A stretch of DNA of 64,000 nt from Rickettsiales bacterium (GCA_020054695.1 JAHXBT010000016.1:101680-165679); one strand, 5' to 3'. Positions 5,148-40,400 are shown, counted from the stretch's first letter. The notes: generated from the letters alone by a model not told the origin. Numbers and translations are program-made.

Positions 5148-6164
5148 ATGTTAAAATCATTTAAAATAGTAATCATTTCTTTTTCTTTCCTTTCTTCATT
5201 TAATGTTTTTGCTAACGACTTAAGTAGTCGTCCAGATTATCATGCGCCAATTGGCGTTATGAGGGACCATATTCATAGCAAAGGTAAGATAATGACATCT
5301 TATCGTTTTGGATATATGTATATGGACGAAAATCGTAATAATAGAGATCGTCTAACAGAAGATGAAGTTAATTCTAGTGCTATTATTCCAACCTCTATGA
5401 TTATGAAAATGCATATTTTTGGTTTTATGTACGGTCTTACAGATAATTTAACTATCTCAGCAATGACAGGTTTTTCTGGTAAAAAAATGGATCATATTCG
5501 TGCTAGCAATGACGAAACTTTCATTATGGAAAGCGACGGTCGCACCGATAGTAAAATATCTGCTCTTTACCAATTCTATAAAAATGATCGCCATATATTA
5601 CAATTTAATGCAGGATTAAATATTCCTACTGGATCAATTAAACATAAAAAATCAGATGGCAATCGCTTTGCTTATCCAATGCAAGTGGGGTCTGGAACTT
5701 ATGACTTATTACCTGGGGTTAGCTATAGTGGATTTGCTGATGATTGGTCTTGGGGTGGTCAATTTAACGGAACTTTTAGGTTGGGTCGCAATAATAGTGG
5801 ATATACATTGGGTGATGTTTATAATCTAAATGTTTGGGGAGCTAGAAAATTAAATAATTTTTTTAGTACCTCACTGCGCTTAGATGCCAATTTAACAGAT
5901 GAAATCATGGGTAAGGATCGCAATATTAACCCTATGACTATGGGAATGATGGCAGGACAGTATATGTCTGCACCTATGAATCCTAATCTTCATGATAAAA
6001 AGCAAATTGATGCATTAATTGGTATTAATTTTATTGCGCCATCTGGTGATTTAAAAAATCATCGTTTTGCTGTTGAGTTTGGCTTGCCAGCCTATCAAAG
6101 AATTGACGGGCCAATGTTGGAAACTGACTATAAATTAACTTTTGGTTGGCAAAAAGCTTTTTAA
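5148..6164 (+). CDS. Putative outer-membrane beta-barrel protein (transporter-type), function unknown
   Basis: 338 aa. Signal peptide ending VFANDL, alternating beta-strand-like pattern, and a C-terminal aromatic signature (GWQKAF). Confidence 0.6.
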   Translation: MLKSFKIVIISFSFLSSFNVFANDLSSRPDYHAPIGVMRDHIHSKGKIMTSYRFGYMYMDENRNNRDRLTEDEVNSSAIIPTSMIMKMHIFGFMYGLTDNLTISAMTGFSGKKMDHIRASNDETFIMESDGRTDSKISALYQFYKNDRHILQFNAGLNIPTGSIKHKKSDGNRFAYPMQVGSGTYDLLPGVSYSGFADDWSWGGQFNGTFRLGRNNSGYTLGDVYNLNVWGARKLNNFFSTSLRLDANLTDEIMGKDRNINPMTMGMMAGQYMSAPMNPNLHDKKQIDALIGINFIAPSGDLKNHRFAVEFGLPAYQRIDGPMLETDYKLTFGWQKAF

Positions 6165-7662: not shown

Positions 7663-8652
7663 CTATTTTATAAGATATTTCTCAGGATTAATAGCTTCCT
7701 TTTTATATCTTAAGCTGAAATATAGTTGTTTTTCTAAAACATTACCAGTGCTGCCCATAGTGGGAATTTTTGTCCCTTGTCGAATTTTCTGCCCCTTTTT
7801 GATTAGAATATTATCCAAATGGGCATAGGCCGAAATCCAGTCGTTACCATGTTTTATGATAATTAAATTACCATAACCCCTCAATTCATTTCCAACATAA
7901 GCAATTTTACCATCACGAACGGATAGTACATCATTATTGTCAGTAGGTTTAATATTAATTCCATCATTATATAATCCACCAGATTTTTGGCCAAATTTTG
8001 AAATTATACTGCCAGATTTTACAGGCCAAATAAAGTTATTATTATCTATATTTGGTGCTTTTTTTATTATCTTTTTTATTCTTTTTTTAGATTTTCGTTT
8101 AATTGATGCGGTTTCAGAAATCCTTATTTTATCGCCAATTTTAATATTATATGGTTTTTTTAACTCATTTAATTTAATCAATTCACTAATGTTCATATCA
8201 TAAATGCGGGCTATATAATATAAATTTTCTCGTTTTACAACATTATGATATTTAAAAGAGGGTAATTTTAATTTTTGACCTTCTTTTAGAACATAAGGTT
8301 CCTTTAAATTATTAATTTCAATTAAATCTCTATTTGGAACATTATAAGTTGCTGAAATGGCATATAGCGTATCCCCATCATTAACGACTACGTGAGAAGA
8401 GTTTTTTTTATCTTCTATATCGCCCCTTTTAGTTGTTGGCAAGTTATTATGTTTTTTGTTATTTAATATTGCTAGGTTATTTTTACTTATTTCTTGTAAT
8501 TCAATTCTATTTTTCTTGTAATAATTTTTACTAGAATATATATTGGTTCTATTGGTGATAATTTCTGCCTTATTTTGATAGCAGCTAGATAGTAGAAGCA
8601 AAATTGTAAATCCTAGCAACAAATTACCAAGATTTTTTAAGAAATAACTCAT
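7663..8652 (-). CDS. nlpD: Lipoprotein with two LysM repeats and a degenerate LytM (M23) domain, NlpD-like
   Basis: Start placed at the internal ATG 8652 (MSYFLKN...LLLSSC lipobox); the longest ORF reaches 8736. Two LysM repeats are present (DGDTLYAISATYNV..., ENLYYIARIYDMNI...). In the M23 domain the metal ligands are replaced: NDGINI instead of HxGxD, and KQLYFS instead of HLHFE. Confidence 0.8.
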   Translation of the reverse strand: MSYFLKNLGNLLLGFTILLLLSSCYQNKAEIITNRTNIYSSKNYYKKNRIELQEISKNNLAILNNKKHNNLPTTKRGDIEDKKNSSHVVVNDGDTLYAISATYNVPNRDLIEINNLKEPYVLKEGQKLKLPSFKYHNVVKRENLYYIARIYDMNISELIKLNELKKPYNIKIGDKIRISETASIKRKSKKRIKKIIKKAPNIDNNNFIWPVKSGSIISKFGQKSGGLYNDGINIKPTDNNDVLSVRDGKIAYVGNELRGYGNLIIIKHGNDWISAYAHLDNILIKKGQKIRQGTKIPTMGSTGNVLEKQLYFSLRYKKEAINPEKYLIK

Positions 8653-8739
8653 AGGTATCTTAATAATTAAATTTGATAATAATTTAAAAAGATATTCAAT
8701 ATTTAGCATTTGTATTAATAATAAAAATAATTTCATATT

Positions 8740-9534
8740 ATGGTTATATCTTTAATAATTATTCTTGGCCTAATATTTGGTAGCTTTGCTTCCATGGCAA
8801 GTTATGAACTAGGTGCCAAAGATGGTAAATTACTTAATATTATAATAAGACGATCTTTTTGTCCAAAATGCAATAATATTTTAAAAATAAAAAATTTATT
8901 TCCTGTATTGTCTTGGCTTTTTCAACGCGGTAGATGTTCATTTTGTCATAGTAAGATTTCTTATCGCTATGTTCTAACAGAGATACTATGTGTTGCATTA
9001 TTTGTCACTAGCTATTTTGCTTTAGGGCAAAAATTAGATATTCATTTATATTTAATATTAACAATTATAGTTATATTAATGGTAGCTTCTATTGTTGATT
9101 TAGAGCATTACTTCATTCCAAATATTACACAAATAATATTAGTTATATTGGCAGTTTTTTACCACATCTTTGTAACTAATAATGTAGATATAAAAACATA
9201 TTTAATATCTGGATTTTTATATGGATTGTTTATCTATTTTATTTTTTATATATTTTTAATAATTAGAGGCAGATGTGTGATTGGCAGTGATGATTTAAAG
9301 TTTTTTCCGATAGCTGGATTGTTTTTAGGTTTAGAAAATTTTGTATATTTTATTGCTTTTCTTGGTATTTTTGGTATAATATGTGGTACGGGTTGGAAAT
9401 TTTTTAAGCAGGAAAATTGCTTTCCTTTTGCCCCCGCACTCTCACTTGCTTTAATGACGAACTTATGGGGTTTTAATAAGTTATTTGATTTGGCTGATAT
9501 TTTGGAGTGTGTAATTCTAGAATGTGTAGGTTAG
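8740..9534 (+). CDS. pilD: Type IV prepilin leader peptidase (A24 family)
   Basis: 264 aa polytopic protein. Zn-finger pair CPKC...CSFC, with candidate catalytic Asp contexts SIVDLEH and GSDDLKFF. Confidence 0.85.
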   Translation: MVISLIIILGLIFGSFASMASYELGAKDGKLLNIIIRRSFCPKCNNILKIKNLFPVLSWLFQRGRCSFCHSKISYRYVLTEILCVALFVTSYFALGQKLDIHLYLILTIIVILMVASIVDLEHYFIPNITQIILVILAVFYHIFVTNNVDIKTYLISGFLYGLFIYFIFYIFLIIRGRCVIGSDDLKFFPIAGLFLGLENFVYFIAFLGIFGIICGTGWKFFKQENCFPFAPALSLALMTNLWGFNKLFDLADILECVILECVG

Positions 9535-11865
9535 ATGCTTTATATAAGGATATTTCCAATAATAATATTTTCCATATTGCTATTGCTATCTAGAAATTTA
9601 TTTGCTTCATGTTATGAGGCAAATAATATGTTCAACAGTGATGGTGATATAAAAGGTCTTGTCGTAAATTTTTCTCAATGTGCTCCAGACGGGTCCGGAT
9701 CACCCGCTCCATATAAAATATTAGTTCCTAGAGATAGCAACTTAAAACAATCTTCGTCAATAAAGTTTACCATTACAGATAGCGATTTGGCTTTAATTAC
9801 TAATGATAAAAAAATCATTAGATTCTACGGTTTGGATGGTCTAATTGCTGAAATATCTAAGAATAACTTAGGTCAACAAACCTGGCTAGGGGGTGTTAAC
9901 ATTGAAAAAGAAGGGCAAACATATATTTTATCCAACATTAATTTTTTAGGAACTCATAAAATTTCTTTTGGCGACACAGGATTTATAGGATCTATAGATG
10001 ACATTAGGTATAGAACTGTTGATGTGAGTGATTTTTTACCTTTTATTGTTAGTAATCCCTACCATATTAATCCGAGTTTAGCTCCATTGTTTGGTAAGAC
10101 GGCAACTCTACCTGATGGTATAATGCCAAAATCAACAATATATTATGATCATGAAAAAAGCTCTGTTATTAAAGGTGATTTAAATTGTAAAAAGGATTAT
10201 ATAAAATCTGATGATTTGGGCTATTATTTTGAAAAGACTCTAGATAAAGATTTGAAAATTAGTGGATGTTGTTATAAGGAAACAGTTAAACAAGGATTTG
10301 CAAACAACAATATAAAAACAAATGTTGATATTGATTTCAGTCAAGATAGAGTAGGAAGAAGCAATGCTTTAAACCTTAGTGATTTGGAGTGTGTTAACGG
10401 AAGCGTTAGCGCTAATTTATCTTATTATTTTGATGACAGTAGTTGCGAAATACGGTTTTTAGGACAGTGTTCTGGTGATGGAATTGTGCCGTATTCTTCT
10501 TTGATTAATGATTGCTCGCCAATAACCGCTGGAGATATAATATTTGAGACAAATGGAACCGATTCTATGATAGAAATTGACTGTAAGGTTGGTTGCAAAT
10601 ATTCAAATATTAACGACACTTTGAAATATTCATTATCAAGCTCTACTGCCGAGGTAACTATATCAGGCGAAAAGTGCGTTAAAAAAACACAAACAATTGA
10701 GTCTTGGACAAGTGAGGTTCCAAAAGGTATTAACAAAAATACTAATATAGAATATAAATTTAATGGAGAAAGTTTAAGTCTAGATTGTATGTCAGGATAC
10801 ATAAGTGGTACAGTGGAGTATTATTTTTCTGATGGATTGGAAGATATCAATTTTACTGGCTCCTGCGCTCCAAAAGAGTATAAGCTTAGCGATTATAATA
10901 ATTTTGAATTACTGGAGGGTTTAAATGGAGATATATCGGTTTCCTATAATGAAGACATAAATTCTATAGAAACAAAAAGCCCATTGGGTTGTATTCCAGG
11001 ATATGAATCAGACGGGGATTTAGGATATTATTTTACTGATATCGATACTGATGGAAGGCAAGATCTTGTAATTTACGGAGGCTGCAATAGAAAACAATAT
11101 ATGCTTAATAACTACGAAAATTTTGACAGATTAATAACTATTGATGGATCTATATCGGTTACTTATGATGAAAACAAAAATTCTATTGATAGTATGGGAT
11201 CTTTAAGTTGTAATGCAAATTATAGATCAGACGGGGATTTAGGATATTATTTTACTGATATCAATGCTAATGGAGAGCAAGATCTTGTGATTAGTGGCAA
11301 TTGTATGTTAGATGATTATAATTCTGTTTTAGCAGATCATGATGCTCTTACTTTTGATATTATTAAACAGGATAATTCAAATATTAATAATATTTTAACA
11401 CCTCTTACATTGCCAGCCTTGGGTAGTAATGGCACTAATATATCTTGGTCATCATCTGACAACAATATTGGGGATAATAATGGTGGAATTAGACAGGATG
11501 GTATTGTAATTAGACCAAACCCCGGAGTTGCAATTAACAATGTAACCTTATATGCCAATATATCAAAGGGCAGTGAATCAATGCAAAAAACCTTTGCTTT
11601 AAAAGTAATTCCATATACTGAGTATAGTAGATATGTCGGTTATTCACAGTATCAATATAATGGCTATGGTATGACAAACCACTACTCATCAACAACTACA
11701 GCTAACTACACAGATTGCGCAACATCATGCAAAAATGATAGATATTGCATGTCTGCTTTTTGGCGAGATAGTGAGAGTAAGATATGTAAAAAATTCAACA
11801 ATGCTAATGATATTGACTCTAGTTGGCAAAATTATAATGATAATCTAAGATATTATAAATATTAA
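9535..11865 (+). CDS. Large secreted Cys-rich repeat protein (adhesin-like) with an Ig-like segment and a PAN/Apple-like C-terminus
   Basis: 776 aa. The ATG directly abuts the pilD stop. Signal peptide ends LFASC. At least 5 modules are bounded by Cys and centred on (L)GYYF. The segment LTLPALGSNGTNISWSSSDNNI...VTLYANISKGSESMQKTFALKVIP looks like an atrophied bacterial Ig-type motif. The C-terminal CATSCKNDRYCMSAFWRDSESKICKKF looks PAN/Apple-like. Confidence 0.8.
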   Translation: MLYIRIFPIIIFSILLLLSRNLFASCYEANNMFNSDGDIKGLVVNFSQCAPDGSGSPAPYKILVPRDSNLKQSSSIKFTITDSDLALITNDKKIIRFYGLDGLIAEISKNNLGQQTWLGGVNIEKEGQTYILSNINFLGTHKISFGDTGFIGSIDDIRYRTVDVSDFLPFIVSNPYHINPSLAPLFGKTATLPDGIMPKSTIYYDHEKSSVIKGDLNCKKDYIKSDDLGYYFEKTLDKDLKISGCCYKETVKQGFANNNIKTNVDIDFSQDRVGRSNALNLSDLECVNGSVSANLSYYFDDSSCEIRFLGQCSGDGIVPYSSLINDCSPITAGDIIFETNGTDSMIEIDCKVGCKYSNINDTLKYSLSSSTAEVTISGEKCVKKTQTIESWTSEVPKGINKNTNIEYKFNGESLSLDCMSGYISGTVEYYFSDGLEDINFTGSCAPKEYKLSDYNNFELLEGLNGDISVSYNEDINSIETKSPLGCIPGYESDGDLGYYFTDIDTDGRQDLVIYGGCNRKQYMLNNYENFDRLITIDGSISVTYDENKNSIDSMGSLSCNANYRSDGDLGYYFTDINANGEQDLVISGNCMLDDYNSVLADHDALTFDIIKQDNSNINNILTPLTLPALGSNGTNISWSSSDNNIGDNNGGIRQDGIVIRPNPGVAINNVTLYANISKGSESMQKTFALKVIPYTEYSRYVGYSQYQYNGYGMTNHYSSTTTANYTDCATSCKNDRYCMSAFWRDSESKICKKFNNANDIDSSWQNYNDNLRYYKY
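10786..11330 (+). repeat. Three tandem in-frame modules (68-73 aa) inside the 776-aa protein
   Basis: Module Cys codons sit at 10786, 10990 and 11209. The near-identical DNA cores gacggggatttaggatattattttactgata at 11011 and 11230 are spaced 219 nt apart. Confidence 0.85.
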
Positions 11866-11868
11866 TAT

Positions 11869-12927
11869 ATGTATAAAAATTTTATTAGACCTATTTTATT
11901 TAAATTTGATGCTGAAAGAACACATGATTTTGCAATAAGATTGATAAAAAATAATCTTCTAATATATCCAAAAATTAAAAATTATGATTCTCTTAAAAAC
12001 AACATTTGTAATATAGAATTTAATAATCCAATTATAATGGCAGCCGGTTTTGATAAAAATGCCGCTATAATTTTAAATTTATTTAAATTTGGGTTTGGTT
12101 CAGTTGAATGTGGCACCGTTACTCCAAAAGCACAAATTGGCAATGATAAACCAAGAATTTTTCGCCTCAAAGAAGATGAAGCAATTATAAATCGTTTGGG
12201 TTTTAATAATGTTGGTATAAAAAAATTTTTACAAAATATTATAGATCAACAAATTAATCAACCTTTTGGTATCAATATCGGGAAAAACAAGGATCAAAAA
12301 GATCAAGTTTTAGATTACATTAATTTATTAGATATTGTTTATGGCTTAAGCTCTTACATCACTATAAACATTTCCTCTCCTAATACTAAGGATTTGCGCA
12401 ATATTCAAAAAAAAGATGAATTAGACTCATTCTTACAGAAAATTATGCAAAAAAAGACTGATTTACTACAAAGAACTAATAAAAATATTCCAATTTTCTT
12501 AAAAATAGCACCAGACTTAGATCATAAAGAGCTGAAAGATATTTCTGATACTGTATTACAAAATAAAGTTGATGCAGTTATAATTTCTAACTCAACTATT
12601 TCTCGTGACAATCTTAAGTCAAATAATCAAAAAGAGCAAGGTGGTTTGACGGGAAAGCCGCTTTTAGAAATTTCAAATGATATTTTATCAAAATTTTATA
12701 AATTTACAGATGGTAAGGTTCCTTTAATAGCCTCTGGTGGTGTATTTTCAGCACAAGATGCATATCAAAAAATTAAATTAGGTGCATCAATGATACAAAT
12801 TTATTCAGCCTTTATTTATAAAGGTTTTTCTTTAGTAGAGAAAATAAAAAAAGAATTAGATTTATTAATCAAAAAAGATGGTTTTGAAAATATTAATGAT
12901 GCAGTAGGAATTGATCATAAAAAATAG
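11869..12927 (+). CDS. pyrD: Dihydroorotate dehydrogenase (quinone), class 2
   Basis: 352 aa. LFKFDAERTH, NPIIMAAGFDKN, GFGSVECGTVTP, NISSPNT and SGGV motifs. Confidence 0.93.
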   Translation: MYKNFIRPILFKFDAERTHDFAIRLIKNNLLIYPKIKNYDSLKNNICNIEFNNPIIMAAGFDKNAAIILNLFKFGFGSVECGTVTPKAQIGNDKPRIFRLKEDEAIINRLGFNNVGIKKFLQNIIDQQINQPFGINIGKNKDQKDQVLDYINLLDIVYGLSSYITINISSPNTKDLRNIQKKDELDSFLQKIMQKKTDLLQRTNKNIPIFLKIAPDLDHKELKDISDTVLQNKVDAVIISNSTISRDNLKSNNQKEQGGLTGKPLLEISNDILSKFYKFTDGKVPLIASGGVFSAQDAYQKIKLGASMIQIYSAFIYKGFSLVEKIKKELDLLIKKDGFENINDAVGIDHKK

Positions 12928-12931
12928 CAAT

Positions 12932-14032
12932 TTATATTTTATGATATTCGTAATTTAAGGCTTCACTAACAGCTTTATAAGTAATTTTACCATTAACAAC
13001 ATTAACTCCATTTTTTAAGTTAATGTCATCTGCAATTGCATCCTTATAACCTTTAGATGCTAAATTTATAGTAAATGGTAAAGTAGCATTTTCTAATGCC
13101 TGAGTTGAAGTTCTGGCAACCGCTCCCGGCATATTTGTAACGCAATAGTGAATTACACCATCAATATCATAAATAGGATCGCTGTGGCTGGTAGGTTTTG
13201 ATGTTTCAAAACAACCCCCCTGATCAATTGATATATCAACCATTACAGATCCTTTTAACATTTTTTTTACCAGATTTTTTGATATTATTTTTGGCGCAGC
13301 TGCGCCAGGTATTAGCACTGACCCAATCACTAGATCAGAATTTATAACATTCTTTTCAATATTTTCCTCAGTAGCATATAAAATTTCACATGAATTGTAA
13401 AATATATCAGATAGATATCTTACTCTTTTTAGTGATTTATCTAAAACTGTTACATTCGCGCCCATTCCTATTGCTACTTTTGCAGCATTAGTTCCAGCAA
13501 CGCCACCACCAATGATGGTAACCTTGGCTTTTGATGTACCTGGAACACCTCCCAATAGAACACCCCTGCCTCCGTTAGATTTTTCTAATGATTTAGCTCC
13601 AGCTTGAATAGATAATTTACCAGCAACTTCGCTCATAGGCGCCAGTAAAGGTAGGGATCCATCTTCAGAGCTAACTGTTTCAAAAGCAATAGCGATGCAT
13701 TTAGAATCAACTAGCATTTGGGTTAATTTGGGTTCGGCAGCTAAATGTAGATAAGAGAAAATTATTTGACCCTTTTTTATCATTTTACATTCTGATTCTT
13801 GCGGCTCTTTGACTTTTAAAATCATATCAGATTTACTATAAACCTCTTTAGCATCTTTAGCAATAACAGCTCCAGATTCTAAATATTCGTCATTAGTAAA
13901 ATCAATATTTAATCCAGCATTATTTTCAATGATAACCTTATGGCCTGAGTTAACTAACTCCCTTACTCCCGATGGTGTAGCACCAACTCGATATTCATGA
14001 TTTTTAATTTCTTTTGGTATCCCTATTAGCAT
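12932..14032 (-). CDS. ald: Alanine dehydrogenase
   Basis: 366 aa. MLIGIPKEIKNHEYRVGATP at the N-terminus and the Rossmann motif VTIIGGGVAGTNAA. Confidence 0.93.
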   Translation of the reverse strand: MLIGIPKEIKNHEYRVGATPSGVRELVNSGHKVIIENNAGLNIDFTNDEYLESGAVIAKDAKEVYSKSDMILKVKEPQESECKMIKKGQIIFSYLHLAAEPKLTQMLVDSKCIAIAFETVSSEDGSLPLLAPMSEVAGKLSIQAGAKSLEKSNGGRGVLLGGVPGTSKAKVTIIGGGVAGTNAAKVAIGMGANVTVLDKSLKRVRYLSDIFYNSCEILYATEENIEKNVINSDLVIGSVLIPGAAAPKIISKNLVKKMLKGSVMVDISIDQGGCFETSKPTSHSDPIYDIDGVIHYCVTNMPGAVARTSTQALENATLPFTINLASKGYKDAIADDINLKNGVNVVNGKITYKAVSEALNYEYHKI

Positions 14033-14104
14033 AATTTTAAGTTAAAAATATTTTAAATATTTTATCACATTGATCATTTTAGATTATTATTCTTTTAAAG
14101 AAAT

Positions 14105-14869
14105 TCAATAAGTTTTTGAGGTGTTTTTTAATATTTGATCTATTTTTAATATTCCTACCTTAACATTAGTAATAAAAACCTCATCAGCTTCAAATAACTT
14201 GTTAATATTAGCCTTGATCTCGAATACTGTATTATTTTTTATAAACTCACCCCTTACTGTTCCTGCGACAATTCCTGTTTCTAATGGTGGCGTATAGATT
14301 ATATTGTTTTTTTTCCAGAATATATTAGCTGAGGATGTTTCTGCTATTTCCTCTTTTTCATTTAATAAAACTACATCAAATAAACCTCTTTCATCTGCTT
14401 CAATTTTAGCCATAACAGAAATTAGATTATTTGATATTTTGCCATTTAATGGAAGAAAATTCGATGATAATCTTCTATACTTACTTATTCCTAAGATAAT
14501 TTTGTCGTATTTTTGTTCAATATGGGGTAAATTTTCAATTATTATCAGTGGTTTTATGTTCTTGTTTGGTAAATATCCTGTACTTCCTGATCCGCGGCTA
14601 ATAGATATTCTTACAAAACCATTTTTTAGTTTGTTTTTATTAATTAATTGATATGATATTTCTTCAAGGTTGGATATATTTGCTTTGATTTTTAGTTCAT
14701 TTAAGCTAAAACTTAGCCTTTTCAAATGTAAGTTAAGGTTTTTGATTTTATTATCACTTATACGACAAGTTTCATAGACACCATCACCAAATCTAATAAT
14801 TCTTTGGTTAACAGAGATAAGTCCATCTTCTTGTGTTGTAATTTTATTGTTGATAGCTAAATATTTCAT
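14105..14869 (-). CDS. Class IV (fold type IV) aminotransferase / aminodeoxychorismate lyase-like
   Basis: 254 aa. FGDGVYET, Lys context GKISNNLISVMAKIEA and ETSSANIF fit the BCAT/DAAT/PabC family. The subfamily is not resolvable by eye. Confidence 0.75.
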   Translation of the reverse strand: MKYLAINNKITTQEDGLISVNQRIIRFGDGVYETCRISDNKIKNLNLHLKRLSFSLNELKIKANISNLEEISYQLINKNKLKNGFVRISISRGSGSTGYLPNKNIKPLIIIENLPHIEQKYDKIILGISKYRRLSSNFLPLNGKISNNLISVMAKIEADERGLFDVVLLNEKEEIAETSSANIFWKKNNIIYTPPLETGIVAGTVRGEFIKNNTVFEIKANINKLFEADEVFITNVKVGILKIDQILKNTSKTY

Positions 14870-30513: not shown

Positions 30514-33500
30514 GTGACTAAAAAAACCATTAAAAACAGCAAAAATTATTCTATCAATAAATTTCCAATAGCAATTATTGGAATGGGCGTAAGGTATCCT
30601 GGTAATATTTGTGGATCTGATGGATTATGGAAGGCTCTAATTGAAGGAAGAGATTCTATCACTAGTATCCCTGCTGATCGATGGAATATAGCAAAATATT
30701 ATGATCCAGATCCCAATAAATCAGATAAAATTAAAACTAAAAAAGGCGGATTTATCTCTGGCATGAAGAAGTTTGATGCTTCATTCTTTGATATTTACCC
30801 CAATATTGCTGAAAAATTAGATCCAAGACAAAGACATTTATTAGAAGTTGTGTATGAGTCTTTGGAGGATGCTAATATTACCATGGAGCAAATCAATAAT
30901 AGTAAAACATCTGTAATTACTGGTGTATTTTTAGGTGATGAAGGTAAAAAATATGCAGGTAGTGATATTTCTAATATTAATGCTCATAGTTTAATGGGTA
31001 GTTCTGATGTTACTGTTCCCGCTAGGATTGCTTATCAATTTAATCTTAAAGGACCTACTCTCTCAGTTGATACTGCTTGCTCATCATCTTTGGTAGCTGT
31101 GCAAATTGCTTGTAGTAATATTTGGCTTGGCGATGCTGATATGGCAATTGCTGGAGGTGTTAATATTATGTCCAGTCATGAGCATTTTATCGGTTTGTCC
31201 AAGGGTGGTTTTTTAAGCCCCGATGGCTATTGTAAAAGTTTTGATGCTGATGGCAAGGGCTATGTTCGTGGTGAGGGTGCTGGTGTTGTAATTTTGAAGC
31301 CTTTGGATCAGGCCGAAAAGGATGGTAATAATATTTACGCAGTCATTAAAAATGCTGTAGTTAATTTTGATGGTTATACTAAAGATGGCATGACTGTTCC
31401 AAATGAATTTGCTCAACAAAAAATGTTGGAGGATGCTTATAGTGGAGCAAATATTGATCCAAGTGAAGTTGATTATGTAGAGGCTCACGGTACTGGTACT
31501 ATAGTTGGAGATCCTAAAGAATGTACAGCCTTTGGTCATGTTTTTGCTAAGGATAGAGATGTTAAAAAACCTTTAATTATTGGTTCAATTAAAAGTAATA
31601 TTGGTCATACTGAAGCTGTTGCAGGTATTGCTGGTTTAACCAAATTAGCACTTTGCATTAAAAATAAGCAAATTCCTCAAAATTTACATTTTAACAATCC
31701 TAATCCCAAGATTAAATTTGATGAGTGGAAGTTAAAAGTACCAACCAAATTAATGAATTGGCCAGGTAAAAAAGACAAAAAGGCAATTGCTGGTGTTAAT
31801 TCTTTTGGTGCTGGCGGTACTAATGCTCATATTGTTTTAGAAGAATATATTTCTGATTTTCAACAGGAATTATCAAAACAAGATAAGAATGAATATAATT
31901 TTCCTTATGTTTTTTCATTATCAGCAGCTTCTCTGGAATCCTTAAAAAAACTGGCCGAAAGATATATAGATTTTATTAATAATTCTCAAGATGATCTATT
32001 AGATATTTGTTATTCTATTCTTAAAAACAGATCTAATTTGAAAGAAAAATTAGTAATAATTTGTAATTCAAAAGAAGATTTAATCAAAAAATTATCTTTA
32101 TATATATCTGATAGTAAAAATCCCCAAATTATTACTGGCAAGACTAAAAAAGATGAAAAATTAAAAATTGCCTTTATTTGCTCAGGTCAAGGTCCTCAAT
32201 GGTATGGAATGGGCAGGCAATTAATGGCAAAATCACAAATATTTGCTGACATTTCTAACAAAATTGACAGAATATTCTTTAAAATTGCTGGCTATTCAAT
32301 TTTAGAAGAAATGAGTAAAGATTCTGCTGATTCTAAAATATCTGAAACTAGAATTGCACAACCAGCAATAATGATCATACAAATTGGTTTAATTGAAATT
32401 TGGAAATCTTTTGGGATTGATCCTGATGGCATAGTTGGTCATTCAATAGGTGAAGTTGCTGCGGCTTATGGCGCTGGCTCTCTTAATTTAGAACAGGCGG
32501 TTAATGTTATTTATAATAGGTCAAAGGAGCAAGATAAGGCCTCTGGTAAAGGTAAAATGTTAGCAACCTCATTACCACTTTCAAAATCAATACAAATTAC
32601 CCAAAAATATAACAATCAAGTTTCAATTGCCGCTCTTAACGGTCCAGAATCAACAGTTTTATCAGGTGATATTGTGCCTTTGGAGGAAATTGCTCAGGAG
32701 TTGGAGGAAAAAGAAATATTTAACCGCTTCTTAAAAATTAATGTTCCTTTTCATAGTCATTATATGGAAATGACTAAGGAAGAAATGCTAAAATCTTTAA
32801 AAGATTTAGAACCTAAAAGAGCTAACATTTCTTTATATTCAACAGTAACTGGTTTGAAAGAAAGTGGCTTAAATTTAAATGCCAATTATTGGTATAAAAA
32901 TGTTAGAGATACAGTTTATTTTGTTAATGCCATCGAGAAAATGATCAATGATGGTTTTAATTATTTTATCGAGATTGCGCCACATCCTATTTTGGGTGCT
33001 GGAGTTAATGATATGTTATCTGTTCAGAAAAAAGATGGCTATGTTATATCCTCTCTTTCTAGAAATATCAAAAACTTTGAGGCAGGAATTGAATATGAGG
33101 TTAATGATATTTTATCTGCTACTGCTAAGACCCAAATAGCAACTCAAAAAGTCAATTTACTTAATATTTATAAACAATATAATCCCAAATCAATTAAACT
33201 ACCAAATTACATTTGGAATCATAAGGAATATTGGTCTGAAAGCAAAGAACATGAGATATCTAGGTTAAAAAAGCAAAAACATCCTTTTATTAAAAATATA
33301 ATTAAAAGCTTAAGTGATAAAAATTCTGCTATTATAGAATTAGATCTTAACCCTAATAAACATCTATTTTTAAATGATCATAAAATTGATGGGGTAATAG
33401 TTATACCAGGTACCGCACATTTTGAAATTGCAACCGCAATTGGCAAAGAAATTTATGGCGATAAGTTTTCACATTTAGAAGATATTCATTTTAAAAAGGC

Positions 33501-36500
33501 TTTATTTTTACCAGATGATGGTTATATAGAGGCAAGATTAGAGTTAAAATCATCAGGAAAATATACTATTCATAGCAAATTAAATAATAAGTGGACTAAT
33601 AATAGTAGCGGTAAAATATGTCATAGTAATAAAAAACAAGTTAAGAAATTTGAAAAATTAGAAGATCTAAAAAAAAGAATTAATAAAGAATTATCAAAAA
33701 AAGAATTTTATAATAAGTTGCAAGAAAGAGGTTTATTTTATGGAGCTAATTTTAGAATAGCACAAAAGATATATTGTAATGAAAATGAAATTTTATCCGA
33801 AATAGGAATAGATAAAAATCAAGAAATTGACGAATATAATGTTATTCCAAATATATCAGATTGCTGTTTACATACAATTTTATCTAATAATATTAATAAT
33901 ATATATTTACCCGATAGGTTTAATAAAATTACAATCTTTAATAAACCAACAAAAATTGTATTTAGCTATATTAGAATTATCAAACATAGTACAAAATTTT
34001 TATTGGGTGATATATTTGTGTATGACTACAAAGGTAACCCGGTATTTTGCATTGAAGGTATGCAGCTAAAACTACTAGAAAATTTTAGCAAAAAAAAACA
34101 GAATCATAATTATGAGTTCCAGTGGTTTAAATCAGATATTTCAATTAATAATAAGGCTGTAGATAAAAATTTTTATATTATAATTTTTATAAATAACAAT
34201 CTAATAAATTTATTAGGTGATAAATTATTAGATATTGGGAATAACATAATATTTATTAATAAGGGTATCAAATTCAAAAAAGAATCTGAATATAATTATA
34301 TTATCAATCCAAATTCTCAAGAGGATTTTAGTAGACTATTCCATCATCTGGCAAAAGAAAATGTCAATATTGCAAAAATAATTAATTTTTGGCCAATTGA
34401 TGGTATAATTAGCAATAATGACAATTGTTACAAATTAAGTCAAGAATCACAAAATTTACTTCTTCCAAATCTTTATTTATTACAAGAAATAGCAAAATTT
34501 GAAAATAATAAAATATATCTCTATCAAATTACTCAAAATGCTGACATAGTTGACGATAAAAAAGATAAAAATATAAATTTTTTACAAGGATCGCTATATG
34601 GTATGGGTCGAGTCTTTATGAATGAATATCCTAATCATCACATAAGGATGATTGATATTGGTTGTCCTAAAATAGAAGATAACATTAATCTCATAATAGC
34701 TGAAATTAATAAGGAAGAACAAATACCTTATGAGACAGAAATAGCAATTAGGGATTACGGTAGATTTGCTCGTAAATTAGTTGAATTTGATCAAAAAAAA
34801 CAGCCTAATAGGGATTTAGCATTTACACCGAATTCAACCTATTTAATTACTGGTGGGCCCAGCGGACTTGGTCTTACTTTGGCTCAGTGGCTTTTTGAAG
34901 AAAAAAACATCAAAAATTTTGCTCTAATGAGTAGATCAGGACCAAAATATGATCAAGATAAGAAAATTATTTCCCAGATGCAGCAAAAGGGAGCAAATAT
35001 TATTTGGCAAGAAGTAATAGCTGATGTAACTAAAGAAAATGAGGTACAAAAAGCCATAGATTATATTAAAGATAATATGCCGCCTTTAAAGGGCATTATC
35101 CATTCTGCTGGATTATTGGATGATTCTTCTATTCCTAATATGAATAAAGAAAAATTCTTTAAAATATTTAATCCCAAAGCCTTAGGGGGGTGGAATTTAC
35201 ATAGAGCAACCTTAGATATTAAATTAGATTTATTTTTATTAATATCCTCAGTTTCTTCAATTATTGGAATTGCTGGACAAACAAATTATTCTTCAGCTAA
35301 TAATTTTTTAAATTATTTATCTCTTTACAGGAATTGTAGCAATGAGAGTTCTAGAGCTATTTGTTTTGGCATGTTATCAGGTTCTTTTGCTGGAATGTCA
35401 AAACAGCAATCTGGCTTAGAAGATTTAACCGCCAAAACAGTAGGACTGATTGCGATGGATAAAAAATTGATGTTAAATAGCATGGAAGATACTTTATACA
35501 ATTCTAATTCATGTTATTATATGATATCTTCTATGAATTGGAGCATATTCTTTGAATCACATTCAGCATCTAGTAATATATTATTATTAGGTGACATATT
35601 GAAGAATAATTCTAAAATATTAAATAAAAAATTACTACCTATAGAAAAAATATTATCCAGTAAAAATGAGGATGCAATAGATCTAATTAAAAATTCAATT
35701 AAAAATATTCTAACAAAAATATTGGGAACATCCATGAATGAGATAGACTCTAATATATCCATATCTAATCTAAATTTAGATTCATTAATGCTTAATCAAC
35801 TTCGCAGCTCCATTCAATCTGAATTTGAATTGTCAATACCGCTAATGCAACTAGTCAAAGGACCAAACATAAATGAGCTGTCTAGAAAAATATTAAAAAC
35901 TATATTGCAACAAGAAAAGGTTGATTATTTTAACGATTCGGATATAGAAATATCAAAGAATAAGTGGTTAATAAAAAGAAAAAATTCACATAAAACAAAA
36001 TATAAAATAATTTGCCTCCATCCAGTTGGTGCTGGGGCATCTATTTTTAGTCATTTTATTTTTAATCCTCCCAAAAATACGCAAATTATTGCCTTACAAA
36101 TGCCAGGTAGAGAAAATAGAATGGATGAAGATTATTATTATAATAATATGGAAAAATTAGTAGAAGATCTATCTAATCAAATAATAGCGGAAATATCTGG
36201 TCCAACAATATTTTGGGGCCATAGTTGGGGCGGTGTAACGCTTTATGAGGTAATAAAATATTTACGCCGTAATAATATTAAAGAATATCAAAATATTAAA
36301 CAATTAATAGTAACAGGTTCAATTGCACCACAATTAACATTACCTTGGAAGGATAGAGATTCTATTAAACAAACAGCAAGAAAAGATAATACTATAGATA
36401 AAATATTATCAACAGTTTCATATATTGATGATGAAAATTATTTGCGCAGCATAATACCGATCATGAAAAAAGATATGGAAATGATAATGACTTATAAATA

Positions 36501-36705
36501 TAAGGAAGAAGAAAAATTAAATATACCCATTTTAGCTTTTGGCGCTAAAGAAGATGATGTAGTATTGTTAGATGAATTAAAAGAATGGGAAAAGCAAACA
36601 AATGATAATTTTCAATTATATGAGGTAAGTGGCGATCATTGGTTTTTAAGTAGAAATAAGGAGTTTATTACAGAAAAAATTGCAGAGAATATCATGGGGC
36701 TTTAA
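30514..36705 (+). CDS. Single-module type I polyketide synthase, KS-AT-DH-KR-ACP-TE
   Basis: 2063 aa with a GTG start; the first in-frame ATG already lies inside the KS motif IAIIGMGVRYPG. KS: DTACSSS (Cys189), EAHGTGT, NIGHTEAVAG. AT: GHSIGE (Ser644), VPFHSH. DH: HKIDGVIVIPG (His956) and DCCLH. KR: TGGPSGLG (~aa1445), LLDD, Y1592 in NYSSAN. ACP: LDSL (Ser1757). TE: ICLHPVGAGAS, GHSWGG (Ser1904), GDHWF. Confidence 0.95.
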   Translation: MTKKTIKNSKNYSINKFPIAIIGMGVRYPGNICGSDGLWKALIEGRDSITSIPADRWNIAKYYDPDPNKSDKIKTKKGGFISGMKKFDASFFDIYPNIAEKLDPRQRHLLEVVYESLEDANITMEQINNSKTSVITGVFLGDEGKKYAGSDISNINAHSLMGSSDVTVPARIAYQFNLKGPTLSVDTACSSSLVAVQIACSNIWLGDADMAIAGGVNIMSSHEHFIGLSKGGFLSPDGYCKSFDADGKGYVRGEGAGVVILKPLDQAEKDGNNIYAVIKNAVVNFDGYTKDGMTVPNEFAQQKMLEDAYSGANIDPSEVDYVEAHGTGTIVGDPKECTAFGHVFAKDRDVKKPLIIGSIKSNIGHTEAVAGIAGLTKLALCIKNKQIPQNLHFNNPNPKIKFDEWKLKVPTKLMNWPGKKDKKAIAGVNSFGAGGTNAHIVLEEYISDFQQELSKQDKNEYNFPYVFSLSAASLESLKKLAERYIDFINNSQDDLLDICYSILKNRSNLKEKLVIICNSKEDLIKKLSLYISDSKNPQIITGKTKKDEKLKIAFICSGQGPQWYGMGRQLMAKSQIFADISNKIDRIFFKIAGYSILEEMSKDSADSKISETRIAQPAIMIIQIGLIEIWKSFGIDPDGIVGHSIGEVAAAYGAGSLNLEQAVNVIYNRSKEQDKASGKGKMLATSLPLSKSIQITQKYNNQVSIAALNGPESTVLSGDIVPLEEIAQELEEKEIFNRFLKINVPFHSHYMEMTKEEMLKSLKDLEPKRANISLYSTVTGLKESGLNLNANYWYKNVRDTVYFVNAIEKMINDGFNYFIEIAPHPILGAGVNDMLSVQKKDGYVISSLSRNIKNFEAGIEYEVNDILSATAKTQIATQKVNLLNIYKQYNPKSIKLPNYIWNHKEYWSESKEHEISRLKKQKHPFIKNIIKSLSDKNSAIIELDLNPNKHLFLNDHKIDGVIVIPGTAHFEIATAIGKEIYGDKFSHLEDIHFKKALFLPDDGYIEARLELKSSGKYTIHSKLNNKWTNNSSGKICHSNKKQVKKFEKLEDLKKRINKELSKKEFYNKLQERGLFYGANFRIAQKIYCNENEILSEIGIDKNQEIDEYNVIPNISDCCLHTILSNNINNIYLPDRFNKITIFNKPTKIVFSYIRIIKHSTKFLLGDIFVYDYKGNPVFCIEGMQLKLLENFSKKKQNHNYEFQWFKSDISINNKAVDKNFYIIIFINNNLINLLGDKLLDIGNNIIFINKGIKFKKESEYNYIINPNSQEDFSRLFHHLAKENVNIAKIINFWPIDGIISNNDNCYKLSQESQNLLLPNLYLLQEIAKFENNKIYLYQITQNADIVDDKKDKNINFLQGSLYGMGRVFMNEYPNHHIRMIDIGCPKIEDNINLIIAEINKEEQIPYETEIAIRDYGRFARKLVEFDQKKQPNRDLAFTPNSTYLITGGPSGLGLTLAQWLFEEKNIKNFALMSRSGPKYDQDKKIISQMQQKGANIIWQEVIADVTKENEVQKAIDYIKDNMPPLKGIIHSAGLLDDSSIPNMNKEKFFKIFNPKALGGWNLHRATLDIKLDLFLLISSVSSIIGIAGQTNYSSANNFLNYLSLYRNCSNESSRAICFGMLSGSFAGMSKQQSGLEDLTAKTVGLIAMDKKLMLNSMEDTLYNSNSCYYMISSMNWSIFFESHSASSNILLLGDILKNNSKILNKKLLPIEKILSSKNEDAIDLIKNSIKNILTKILGTSMNEIDSNISISNLNLDSLMLNQLRSSIQSEFELSIPLMQLVKGPNINELSRKILKTILQQEKVDYFNDSDIEISKNKWLIKRKNSHKTKYKIICLHPVGAGASIFSHFIFNPPKNTQIIALQMPGRENRMDEDYYYNNMEKLVEDLSNQIIAEISGPTIFWGHSWGGVTLYEVIKYLRRNNIKEYQNIKQLIVTGSIAPQLTLPWKDRDSIKQTARKDNTIDKILSTVSYIDDENYLRSIIPIMKKDMEMIMTYKYKEEEKLNIPILAFGAKEDDVVLLDELKEWEKQTNDNFQLYEVSGDHWFLSRNKEFITEKIAENIMGL

Positions 36706-37443: not shown

Positions 37444-40400
37444 ATGGTTACTTTTACTCTAATATCATTTTTTATTACTTTTTGTACATGCTTCCTATTA
37501 TCAATATTACTCGTAACCTGTGGGAAGAAATATATACAATTTACAATATTTAATATTAATTTATGTATTTGGACTTTATTTAATATTTTATATATTTCTG
37601 CAGAATCATTTGAGTCGTCACTTATATATGCAAAATTTGCCAGCGCTTCCATTGTACTCATACCATATTTATTCTTTAAAACAACGCTATCACTTTCAAA
37701 CACAAGAATAAAGCCAATATATAATATAATAAATAATATTATTGCTATATCACTTTCGCTTTCAATGTTTACGGATCTGATGATAAGGGGGGTTAGACCT
37801 TTTATGGATTTTAAATTTGCACCAGAAGCAACTATGTTTTTTTACATATATTGCATATATCTTGTAATGGTAGTGGTAATTGGACATATATTTTTGTACA
37901 AATCTATTAAGTATAATTATAAAAATAAGTTTATATTTTATGCTTATATAATAGGATGGAGTGGAGGTGTGACAACCTTACCAGTTTATCTTGGAATTTC
38001 AATATATCCCTTCTCTGTAATATTGGTAGCAGTTTATACACTATTTGTATCATATGCCCTTATGCAACATAGAATACTTGGCCTTTACTTAACTATAATT
38101 AATTTATTGATAAAAGCATTATGCTTTGCAACGATATTCTTTTCTTATTTAATTTCTAAAAAAATATATGATTTAATATTTATAAATGATCATTATGCAT
38201 ATATTATATTTAACATGCTGTACATTATGTTTTCTATACAATTGTATCAAAGTTTAGTTCAGAAGTTAAAAGTAGTAACGGAAAAAATGGCATTAGGTAT
38301 ACCATATAATAAATTAGAGATAAGAAATAATATTGGTAAACATATATTAGATATTGTAGAAATTGATCAATTATCAAAACAAATAAAAAATATTATTGAA
38401 AAACAAATAGGTGTTAAAACTATCTCTTTTTATGTTGCATCAGAATTAGGAATTAAAGAACATAATGATCCTAATATAAAATTTGTAAAATATTATGGTC
38501 AAGATATAGAAAGGAAGTATATAATAGAAATGCAGCGATCTATTCAGGATGAAAAATTCTCCCTATCAACAAAATTTAATGAAGTTGATTATAAATTCCG
38601 CAAAATAATGGGTGGCGCAGATTTTCAAGGATTAGTACCCTTTTTATATAATAATAAAGTTGTGGGCTTTTTGACTCTACAATCTCGCCCTAAAAAAAGA
38701 AATTATTTTTATTATGAAGATATGGAATTATTTGATGAAGTTTCTAATAAAACTGGCTTTGCCTTAGAAAGGGTTAGATTACATTTACAATTTATGGAGG
38801 AAAAGGAATTAGCATTAATATCTCTTGCTGGTTCTATTGCTCATGAATTGCGTAACCCACTTGGCGCAATTAAACTGACAACTGATAATTTAACCTCTAT
38901 AAAAGAAAATTCACGATGTGATGAGAATGTAAAAGAAGTAATTAATAAAGATAGTGAGTTTAAGGAAACAATAAATAATTCAGATATAAAAATTAATAAT
39001 TTTAAGAATCAAATTAATAAAACTATTGATTTAGCTACTGATATTATTGATATGACTTTGCATGAGATTAGTGGAAAAAGATTAACCAGGGAGGATTTTG
39101 ATTACTATTCTGCTAAAAAATCCGTCTTAGATGCTATAATGCTTTATGGTTATGATAGTAATGAAGAAAAAGATAAGGTTACTATTAATTTATCTGATGA
39201 TAAAAATATTACAGCAAGTAAGGCTGGCGATCAAACTATATCAGTAAATAATATTAAGGAAGATAATGATTTTATTATTTTAACCAATAACACTGGTTTT
39301 AAATATATAATTTTTAATTTAGTAAAAAATGCTTTATATTATTTAAGCAAATATCCAGATTCTGATATTGCCATTTCTTTTGAGAAGGAAAAAATAATTG
39401 ATCAAAAAACAATCAAAAAATTTAATATATCTAATCACAATATTAAAATAGAAGATTCAAAACCAAGCACTAATTTTAAAGGTATTTATAAATATAATGT
39501 TATTAATATTATTGACACCGGACCCGGAATTAAAGAAGAGATAATTACAAAAATTTTCCAACCATATACGTCTTATAAAAAAAATGGTACAGGAGTTGGT
39601 TTAGATTTTTGTAATAGAATGATGGGTAATTTTGGCGGCGCTATAATTTGTGAAAGTAAATTAGGAAAATATACTAAATTTAGTTTATTATTTCCAATAT
39701 TGTCAGAACAAGAAGAGAAAGTTGCAATTGGTCAAATTTTAGAGCTTGAAGATAAAATTGCACAAGCAGAGAAAAAAGGAGAGAATCTATCATATGTAGA
39801 AAAATCTTTGGAGAAAAAACCTAAAAAGAATATTTTACTTATTGATGATGTTAAGGTTAATATTGATATATTGGCCAGGGATTTAAAAAATAAATGCCCT
39901 AATTTTGAAGTTGTTATTATGACTTGTCCGGTTGAAGCATTTAAATTAATTAAAGTTAAGCAAGAGGAAGATGAGCAGTTTGATTTAATTCTTACAGATA
40001 TTGAAATGCCTTTAATGAATGGCATAGATTTAATTAATAAAGTTAGAAATGAATTAAAAATCTCAAAATATGATTTGCCTATCTTGGTTTATGGTTCTCG
40101 TGAAGATAAGATAACTATTAATGAAGCTCTAGATGCCGGTTGTAATTCTTATTATATGAAGCCAAAAGATTTAAGATTTATTGCTAGAAATATTTCTAAA
40201 TGGGTTTTAAATGATTATATGCCATCTAAGACTATTAATAATAAGGAAATTATTATTAATAATCAGACTTTAAAAGACCTTAATATTATCATAGCTGATG
40301 ATCAATTAATGAATTTAATGTTGGTATCTAATAAAATTTCTAATGCCGGTGCTAATATTTTTAAATGTAATGATGGTGGGGATATAATAAAATTAATGAC

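Follow-up and report, generated by a model that had tools for sequence, protein, structure and literature searches.

A type II secretion system (T2SS) is the usual route across the outer membrane for folded, disulfide-rich proteins exported by the Sec pathway, and its genes, like those of type IV pili, are usually scattered in genomes. Adhesive domains of eukaryotic type are typical of host-associated bacteria. The nearest described precedent for the locus considered here is the Escherichia coli sslE(yghJ)-pppA-yghG-gspC-M cluster, in which PppA is required for the secretion of SslE (PMC3707838), and both type IV pilus and T2SS genes have been reported among aquatic and basal members of the Rickettsiales (PMC9352585, PMC10847448). 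In a 64,000-nucleotide stretch of DNA from a Rickettsiales bacterium (GCA_020054695.1 JAHXBT010000016.1:101680-165679; hereafter the window), the gene of a type IV prepilin peptidase, pilD, is followed on the same strand by a large gene for a 776-residue protein with 22 Cys.

We describe the domains and repeats of this protein, its conservation, the synteny of its gene and its rapid divergence, and assess whether its position beside pilD bears on its export. The reading we favour, with moderate confidence, is that it is an adhesin or a ligand-binding (lectin-like) protein: modular, non-enzymatic, Sec-exported and disulfide-bonded. It would be exported by Sec and then folded oxidatively in the periplasm, and an N-terminal scaffold would present an interchangeable C-terminal head, the whole acting as a modular binder. 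Its novelty would lie in an undescribed scaffold and module, whereas binding domains, and secreted modular adhesins with eukaryote-like domains, are already known.

Architecture of the 776-residue protein

The TAG stop of pilD (9532-9534) directly abuts the ATG of the large gene at 9535, with no spacer, as the initial annotation of this locus had observed. This ATG is invariant in the DNA of seven aligned loci, whereas the codon for Met32 is absent in L002 and L004 (L numbers denote related loci and P numbers homologous proteins); the 776-residue reading, with its signal peptide, is therefore the correct one. Public gene models of the large protein begin at Met32 (NCBI P0001, 745 residues) or at other internal sites (9535-9630) and so miss the signal peptide. 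In a protein alignment of 11 homologues, A24, C26 and N31 are invariant and Y27 nearly so, and cleavage probably follows the invariant Ala24. The number of Cys residues is even in nine of the ten homologues that cover the N-terminus, when Cys26 is counted and Cys of the signal peptide is left out; taken with Ala24, this fits full disulfide pairing and cleavage by signal peptidase I (SPase I). A signal peptide and many Cys residues had both been noted at the outset.

The N-terminal ~520 residues, comprising a β-sandwich domain (N-domain), five repeated modules and a five-Cys insert, match no described family and would merit definition as one. Within the N-domain there is one conserved Cys pair (C26, C49) and a motif, FGD..F.G.IDD..Y; no Pfam family matches it. 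AlphaFold2 (AF2) models the N-domain alone (residues 23-214) as an all-β sandwich, with a predicted local distance difference test score (pLDDT) of 75.6 and a predicted template modelling score (pTM) of 0.71. A laminin G or concanavalin A-like (LamG/ConA-like) identity was considered and is kept as an unconfirmed lead, the best Foldseek match having an E of 0.02 and the window domain having no Pfam match. The motif F.G.IDD.RY resembles the C-terminal strand of Laminin_G_3; the N-domain of the distant relative P0076 reaches only E 0.065 in Pfam, and the N-domains of P0076 and of the window protein do not match significantly by hhalign.

At least five modules of the form C...GYYF...G.C had been anticipated. 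A regular expression finds exactly five of the type C..GY..YYF..G.C, with cores at residues 218-246, 286-312, 418-444, 486-517 and 559-590 (modules M1 to M5), and hhalign shows them to be mutually homologous, with probabilities of 87-99.5% in nine of the ten pairs (M1 against M2, M3, M4 and M5 93.6-97.2%, M3/M4 95.9%, M4/M5 99.5%) and 46% for M2/M5; on sequence comparison, this resemblance exceeds chance. The last two, M4 and M5, are a tandem duplication of 219 nt, whose copies blastn matches at 78.5% identity over 149 nt. The insert separating M2 from M3, in which C327, C350, C354 and C381 are invariant, is not related to them, reaching an hhalign probability of at most 11% against any module.

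We take the module to be a previously undescribed one-disulfide unit of ~60-73 residues, with a fold that is possibly like that of complement control protein (CCP) domains, and not to be a Sushi domain. Structure prediction, which the initial annotation had recommended for defining the repeat fold, served for only part of the protein: an AF2 model built from an 11-sequence alignment is all-β for residues 23-520 (pLDDT 70-90), whereas residues 520-776 have a pLDDT below 50. The top ranks of a Foldseek search against the PDB were occupied by CCP/Sushi arrays, namely Crry (2xrb; probability 0.99, E 1.8e-3), SPICE, CD46 and PAPP-A, at E-values from 1e-3 to 9e-2 and low TM-scores, in output that does not display the aligned query residues. 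Each module has two Cys instead of the four of a Sushi domain (paired 1-3 and 2-4) and does not have the conserved Trp; the Sushi profile (PF00084) has no match to the 776-residue protein at E<=0.1, and the modules score only ~1% hhalign probability against Sushi units from the protein's own family. An initial hhalign probability of 98% linking M5 to Sushi was discarded as circular, the paralogue rows in its alignment being real Sushi units, and it fell to 1% once the alignment was limited to four M5-type sequences.

The C-terminal head is of a different kind. An Ig-like segment had been suggested there, and a hidden Markov model (HMM) search of the sort then proposed identifies it as aBig_2, an atrophied bacterial Ig domain, with scores of 55-62 bits in the orthologues; residues 566-654 of AbnA (PDB 5HO0), an extracellular arabinanase, align with it. 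The suggestion of a PAN/Apple fold at the extreme C-terminus stands in part. PAN_3 (PF08277, cut-off 21.1) scores 23.9 bits on the isolated 83-residue C-terminus and 20.2 bits on the whole protein, whereas PAN_1 (PF00024, cut-off 21.4) stays below threshold on both (19.1 and 14.1 bits) and the orthologues reach only 15.5-17.8 bits with PAN_3, under the cut-off. Its four Cys are invariant in five sequences, with a spacing, C-x3-C-x5-C-x12-C, that resembles the PAN core of plasminogen. A PDB sequence search with this segment returned no hits, and hhalign against a plasminogen PAN domain, using an approximate query sequence, was not significant. The PAN/Apple identity is thus plausible, if borderline, on its profile scores. 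No catalytic family in Pfam or NCBIfam matches any part of the 776-residue protein.

Family, divergence and setting

A word-indexed search of 5.8 billion proteins recovered seven relatives, and an HMM search run exhaustively over 1.84 billion representatives, using an N-terminal profile, gave 12 matches, six of them full-length; all full-length members come from AT-rich marine genomes labelled Rickettsiales, a small clade of uncultured alphaproteobacteria. The ~520-residue scaffold is common to the family and the C-termini differ. The window protein, P0002-4 and P0071 end in aBig_2 plus the PAN-like segment; P0005, P0069 and P0070 in Sushi repeats plus a StcE-type β-sandwich, with Pfam-significant matches to Sushi and StcE_b-sandwich; and P0006 and P0072 in Sushi repeats only. 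The interchangeable head would accordingly be aBig_2 with a PAN/Apple-like domain in the window and a Sushi/CCP array, with or without the β-sandwich, in orthologues. Very distant proteins with the same module type (P0075, P0076 and P0078) occur in other AT-rich aquatic genomes. The gene of P0075 is followed by a thioredoxin gene and a DsbD-type gene, and that of P0076 is preceded by a gene for a 1026-residue autotransporter and followed by one for a DUF285 protein (the two neighbourhoods are covered by L021 572-4357 and L019 1145-7124); such neighbours fit an extracytoplasmic, disulfide-rich surface protein. Neither this family nor the occurrence of Sushi domains in Rickettsiales turned out to be described in the literature that we searched.

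The 776-residue protein has diverged faster than its surroundings, being 54% (L002), 38% (L001) and 32% (L005) identical to its orthologues where the products of flanking genes are 64-85% identical. A comparison of strains used four metagenome contigs (L014-L017, Tara/ENA), retrieved by means of this PilD, that share ~99% identity with the window. Neither pilD nor the thiolase gene differs in them, and the large gene has 10-23 differences in each of the three contigs spanning 1.4 kb or more of its length; ~90% of these are nonsynonymous, giving a ratio of nonsynonymous to synonymous polymorphism (pN/pS) of ~1.8-2.5 from few and non-independent substitutions. The pattern is one that diversifying or relaxed selection on a surface-exposed protein would give, and head and surface residues may be diversifying fast in the way expected of contact with a host, prey or particle surface. 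The nlpD gene (7663-8652), upstream of pilD, also carries four to eight strain-level substitutions relative to L014-L017, almost all of them nonsynonymous. All four contigs end inside the large gene (10041-11325), three of them within the 219-nt M4/M5 repeat or shortly beyond it, which suggests that the repeat breaks short-read assemblies; hypervariability was rejected as the cause of these ends, given the position of three of the four and the ~99% identity of the strains.

The setting of the family is less certain than its Rickettsiales label, which comes from record titles of related contigs and from source names, implies. Low G+C content, tight packing, many biosynthetic genes and recovery both from a Tara surface fraction (0.45-0.8 µm) and in a Global Ocean Sampling (GOS) record (AACY02) would suit a streamlined, free-living alphaproteobacterium of the AEGEAN-169/SAR11 type just as well, whereas a VirD4-like gene near the syntenic L001 locus leans towards Rickettsiales. 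The surprise value of the eukaryote-like modules depends on this placement. The initial annotation had called them unexpected in this kind of genome; if the Rickettsiales label is right they are not, such domains being typical of host-associated bacteria, and the remark would regain force for a free-living plankter. The family offers a concrete candidate for a molecule of host or particle contact, being apparently secreted, fast-diversifying, composed of recognised binding modules only, restricted to a lineage and expressible as a probe.

The pilD neighbourhood and alternative readings

The window is gene-dense, with ~28% G+C, and the features of the locus are given in Table 1. On the opposite strand, divergent from pilD, lies the gene of an NlpD-like lipoprotein, whose longest open reading frame (ORF) runs to 8736, only 3 bp away from the start codon of pilD. 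Translation probably begins instead at Met29, giving an intergenic region of ~87 bp, since the L004 homologue begins at the equivalent position, with an 'LLSSC' lipobox. PilD itself looks functional, because both of its Pfam domains match, its catalytic residues D120 and D185 are invariant among 12 diverse PilD sequences (the window protein and 11 homologues of 25-75% identity) and its CxxC..CxxC motif (C41, C44, C66, C69) is nearly so, C41, C44 and C69 being invariant and C66 almost. The downstream border of the locus is pyrD, which has the same position in L001, L002, L005 and L006. Read-through of the pilD TAG into a PilD/776-residue fusion was considered, as both genes share a frame in the window, and rejected because they do not in L002. 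A promoter and terminator scan was uninformative in such AT-rich DNA, with 35 promoter-like sites found against 32.5 expected.

Table 1. Features of the pilD locus and of the encoded proteins, in window coordinates
Feature	Position (nt)	Strand	Residues	Basis
NlpD-like lipoprotein gene, two LysM domains and Peptidase_M23, divergent from pilD	7663..8652	-		Pfam: LysM 4.7e-21, Peptidase_M23 1.9e-26
pilD, type IV prepilin peptidase	8740..9534	+	264 aa	Pfam
A24_N_bact (PF06750) in PilD	8761-9018	+	8-93	E 1e-23, 83.6 bits, above Pfam cut-off
Peptidase_A24 (PF01478) in PilD	9061-9387	+	108-216	E 4.5e-10, 40.4 bits, cut-off 26.5
Catalytic Asp codons of PilD	9097-9099; 9292-9294	+	D120; D185	alignment
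Large gene	9535..11865	+	776 aa	intact ORF
Sec signal peptide (predicted)	9535..9606	+	1-24	conserved start; invariant A24, C26
N-terminal β-sandwich (25-~175) and linker to 215	9607..10179	+	25-215	AF2
Modules M1 (Cys core 218-246) and M2 (247-312)	10186..10470	+	218-312	regular expression, hhalign
Five-Cys insert	10471..10677	+	313-381	not homologous to modules
Modules M3 (382-444), M4 (445-517), M5 (518-590)	10678..11304	+	382-590	hhalign
aBig_2, atrophied bacterial Ig (PF20578)	11332..11610	+	600-692	E 2.3e-16, 59.8 bits, cut-off 27
PAN/Apple-like four-Cys domain (C728, C732, C738, C751)	11653..11856	+	707-774	PAN_3 at threshold
pyrD, dihydroorotate dehydrogenase, conserved downstream border	11869..12927	+		Pfam DHO_dh 2.7e-80

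Elsewhere in the window, a gene for a 2040-residue type I polyketide synthase (ketosynthase, acyltransferase, dehydratase, ketoreductase, acyl carrier protein and thioesterase, or KS-AT-DH-KR-ACP-TE; 30583-36705, plus strand) is followed by a gene for a 1203-residue hybrid histidine kinase/response regulator (37444-41055, plus strand), unusual cargo for a streamlined genome of this composition. A 338-residue ORF (5148-6164, plus strand) combines a signal peptide with a C-terminal Phe and has the look of an outer-membrane β-barrel; it has no Pfam match.

The order NlpD (minus strand), pilD, large gene, pyrD recurs in every clade locus with a full-length member, with anything from an overlap to ~50 bp between pilD and the large gene, and it has persisted even as identity of the large protein fell to 32% and its C-terminus was exchanged. 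Conservation of this adjacency, which the initial annotation had asked about, thus holds in every genome with a full-length member and fails in more distant relatives of either gene. An insertion in the clade's ancestor may have placed the large gene between pilD and pyrD, and it probably shares a transcript with pilD, co-expression being suggested by the spacing. Delivery of the protein to the surface may then use PilD-dependent machinery, either a T2SS or something like a type IV pilus; the T2SS would be the usual route because the protein is folded and disulfide-rich, with no autotransporter, T1SS (type I), T9SS (type IX) or sortase signal. We regard the conserved placement after pilD as a testable export hypothesis, not as evidence in itself. 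The protein was originally described as a secreted binding protein tied to pilus or T2SS maturation: the first part is sustained by the Sec signal, the richness in Cys and the recognition of binding-type domains only, while the link to PilD or a T2SS is something that we infer.

Several observations weigh against our reading, some of them bearing on the protein and others on its tie to pilD. Foldseek against the PDB found no significant relative of the N-domain, only weak matches to carbohydrate-binding modules (CBM) and lectin-like proteins; in the models, the likeness of modules to Sushi domains appears to be structural only, borderline (E ~1e-3) and undetectable by sequence; the pLDDT below 50 over the C-terminal 250 residues leaves the putative Ig and PAN folds to profile matches; and the strain-level excess of nonsynonymous change comes from the small set of substitutions mentioned above. 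That excess, together with the very small size of the family and the splitting of the L001 (GCA_038142525.1) orthologue into three ORFs, might even suggest a decaying or spurious ORF of no function. However, the ORF is intact and full-length in at least 10 independent assemblies, ~57 positions are invariant, including 18 of the 22 Cys of the window protein, and many other genes of the L001 metagenome-assembled genome (MAG) are also fragmented, pointing to assembly errors, so that we consider loss of function extremely improbable. The initial annotation had held that missing domain matches combined with poor conservation or frameshifts in relatives would speak for such an orphan; beyond this conservation, the aBig_2 match is significant. 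The L001 genes split into two or three ORFs are those of an aminotransferase, serine hydroxymethyltransferase (SHMT), VirD4, thiolase and the large protein together with its downstream Sushi ORFs; since proteins of the same cluster are 1367-1481 residues long and so many genes are split, frameshift errors rather than pseudogenes are suggested. The protein could also be a lipoprotein, lipidated on Cys26 after cleavage by SPase II and, like SslE, anchored to the outer membrane. An invariant Cys does stand directly after the hydrophobic core, and 'LFASC' resembles the lipoboxes of this genome's NlpD ('LLSSC') and BamD ('LIMSC'). When [LVI][ASTVI][GAS]C is taken as the lipobox, the window has 'FASC', yet in some homologues N, V or T occupies position -1, residues not typical of a lipobox there; the invariant Ala at -2 of the Cys fits SPase I cleavage, and the parity of Cys requires Cys26 to be free for a disulfide, probably with the invariant C49. 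On balance we find lipidation unlikely.

The tie to PilD is weak, as pyrD is linked just as tightly: it is functionally unrelated and starts on the same strand only 3 bp after the large gene, so that the tight spacing reflects genome streamlining. Neither the window nor the clade flanks that were fetched yielded any T2SS or type IV pilus component apart from PilD. In L008, whose PilD is 47% identical, the divergent NlpD and pilD pair is kept with RecO, and not the large gene, following pilD; in L009 and L012 (36-39% identical) a secretin follows, and in L011 (30% identical) Dot/Icm genes; the distant module-bearing proteins adjoin autotransporter or Dsb genes and not pilD. The adjacency may then be accidental, PilD serving a type IV pilus or T2SS encoded elsewhere, or nothing, and the large gene being an unrelated, lineage-specific insertion at a site between pilD and pyrD that tolerates one, with a product exported independently of PilD. 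This explanation is a strong contender, of which we stop just short of being persuaded; set against it are the constancy of the gene order across the clade despite divergence to 32%, the need of a folded, disulfide-rich protein with a Sec signal for an outer-membrane route, usually a T2SS, and the SslE/PppA precedent (PMC3707838). By analogy with that precedent, export of the 776-residue protein in dependence on PilD is a tentative proposal that we judge rather doubtful. More specifically, the protein might be a pilus tip adhesin analogous to PilY1/PilC, exported by Sec and displayed on a type IV pilus matured by PilD. PilY1 likewise carries a Sec-type rather than a prepilin leader, the 776-residue protein is large and non-enzymatic and adjoins pilD, and type IV pili have been proposed for host attachment in some Rickettsiales (PMC9352585, PMC10847448). 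There is, however, no match to PilY1/Neisseria_PilC or to a von Willebrand factor A (vWA) domain in Pfam at E<=0.1, a pilin-leader scan of the window found no minor-pilin genes nearby, and no pilus genes were found in any clade flank; we think a tip adhesin improbable. A further long shot is that PilD is a true orphan: pilus and T2SS genes would have been lost and PilD retained for surface display of the 776-residue protein, a host-range adhesin made of the undescribed module and exchangeable eukaryote-like heads (PAN, CCP), with which tiny planktonic Rickettsiales-like cells would dock to protist or phytoplankton hosts. If so, the protein would open a first molecular route to the hosts of these marine lineages and would point to a non-canonical role for a prepilin peptidase.

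The initial annotation had found no pilin, secretin or ATPase gene nearby, and within the window this is borne out: prepilin and Flp leader motifs, sought in all six frames, matched only inside housekeeping genes, tblastn with two secretins found nothing, and ten otherwise unidentified ORFs belong to no pilus or T2SS family, in a Pfam scan that covered part of the window ORFs. Its description of pilD as an orphan therefore applies to these 64 kb and no further, type IV pilus and T2SS genes being reported in related Rickettsiales; they could lie elsewhere in this genome. A search with the secretin of a relative returned many MshL-type secretins from MAGs labelled Rickettsiales, and these were considered as PilD partners in the clade and set aside, the two traced cases (L012 and L013) belonging to more distant organisms. 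In L009/L010 (164-2575) and L012 (9211-11653), an MshL-type secretin gene and two genes without Pfam matches occupy the slot of the large gene. In L011, from bioreactor sludge, pilD lies directly upstream of four DotI/IcmL paralogues, DotH/IcmK and TrbI (DotG-like) (8001-14109), so that a prepilin peptidase gene adjoins a type IVB secretion cluster.

Comparison with described systems

Among prepilin peptidases, PilD of the window has the two domains, the four-Cys motif and both catalytic Asp residues of the PilD/GspO family (MEROPS A24A), and differs in its surroundings: no substrate or partner genes were found within 64 kb, whereas in related MAGs labelled Rickettsiales pilD precedes a secretin instead. 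The locus resembles the E. coli SslE/PppA/T2SS-beta system in that the gene of a large surface or secreted protein dependent on Sec lies directly beside that of a prepilin peptidase. SslE is, however, an M60-like metalloprotease lipoprotein, whereas the 776-residue protein has no peptidase domain and no sequence similarity to it; the gene order is reversed, the peptidase coming first in the window; and the sslE locus continues into a full T2SS operon, whereas no gsp genes were found in the window or flanks.

For the protein itself, Geobacillus AbnA (5HO0) shares aBig_2, aligned residue by residue, but is a glycoside hydrolase of family GH43, and no catalytic domain was found in the 776-residue protein. 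The CCP/Sushi and PAN/Apple proteins of host-associated bacteria provide an architectural parallel, being likewise modular, Cys-rich, extracytoplasmic and enzyme-free. The five modules of the window protein set it apart from them, having two Cys each, no conserved Trp and no match to the Sushi profile; the likeness lies in the Pfam-significant Sushi repeats of its orthologues and in its own PAN_3 match, which is at threshold level.

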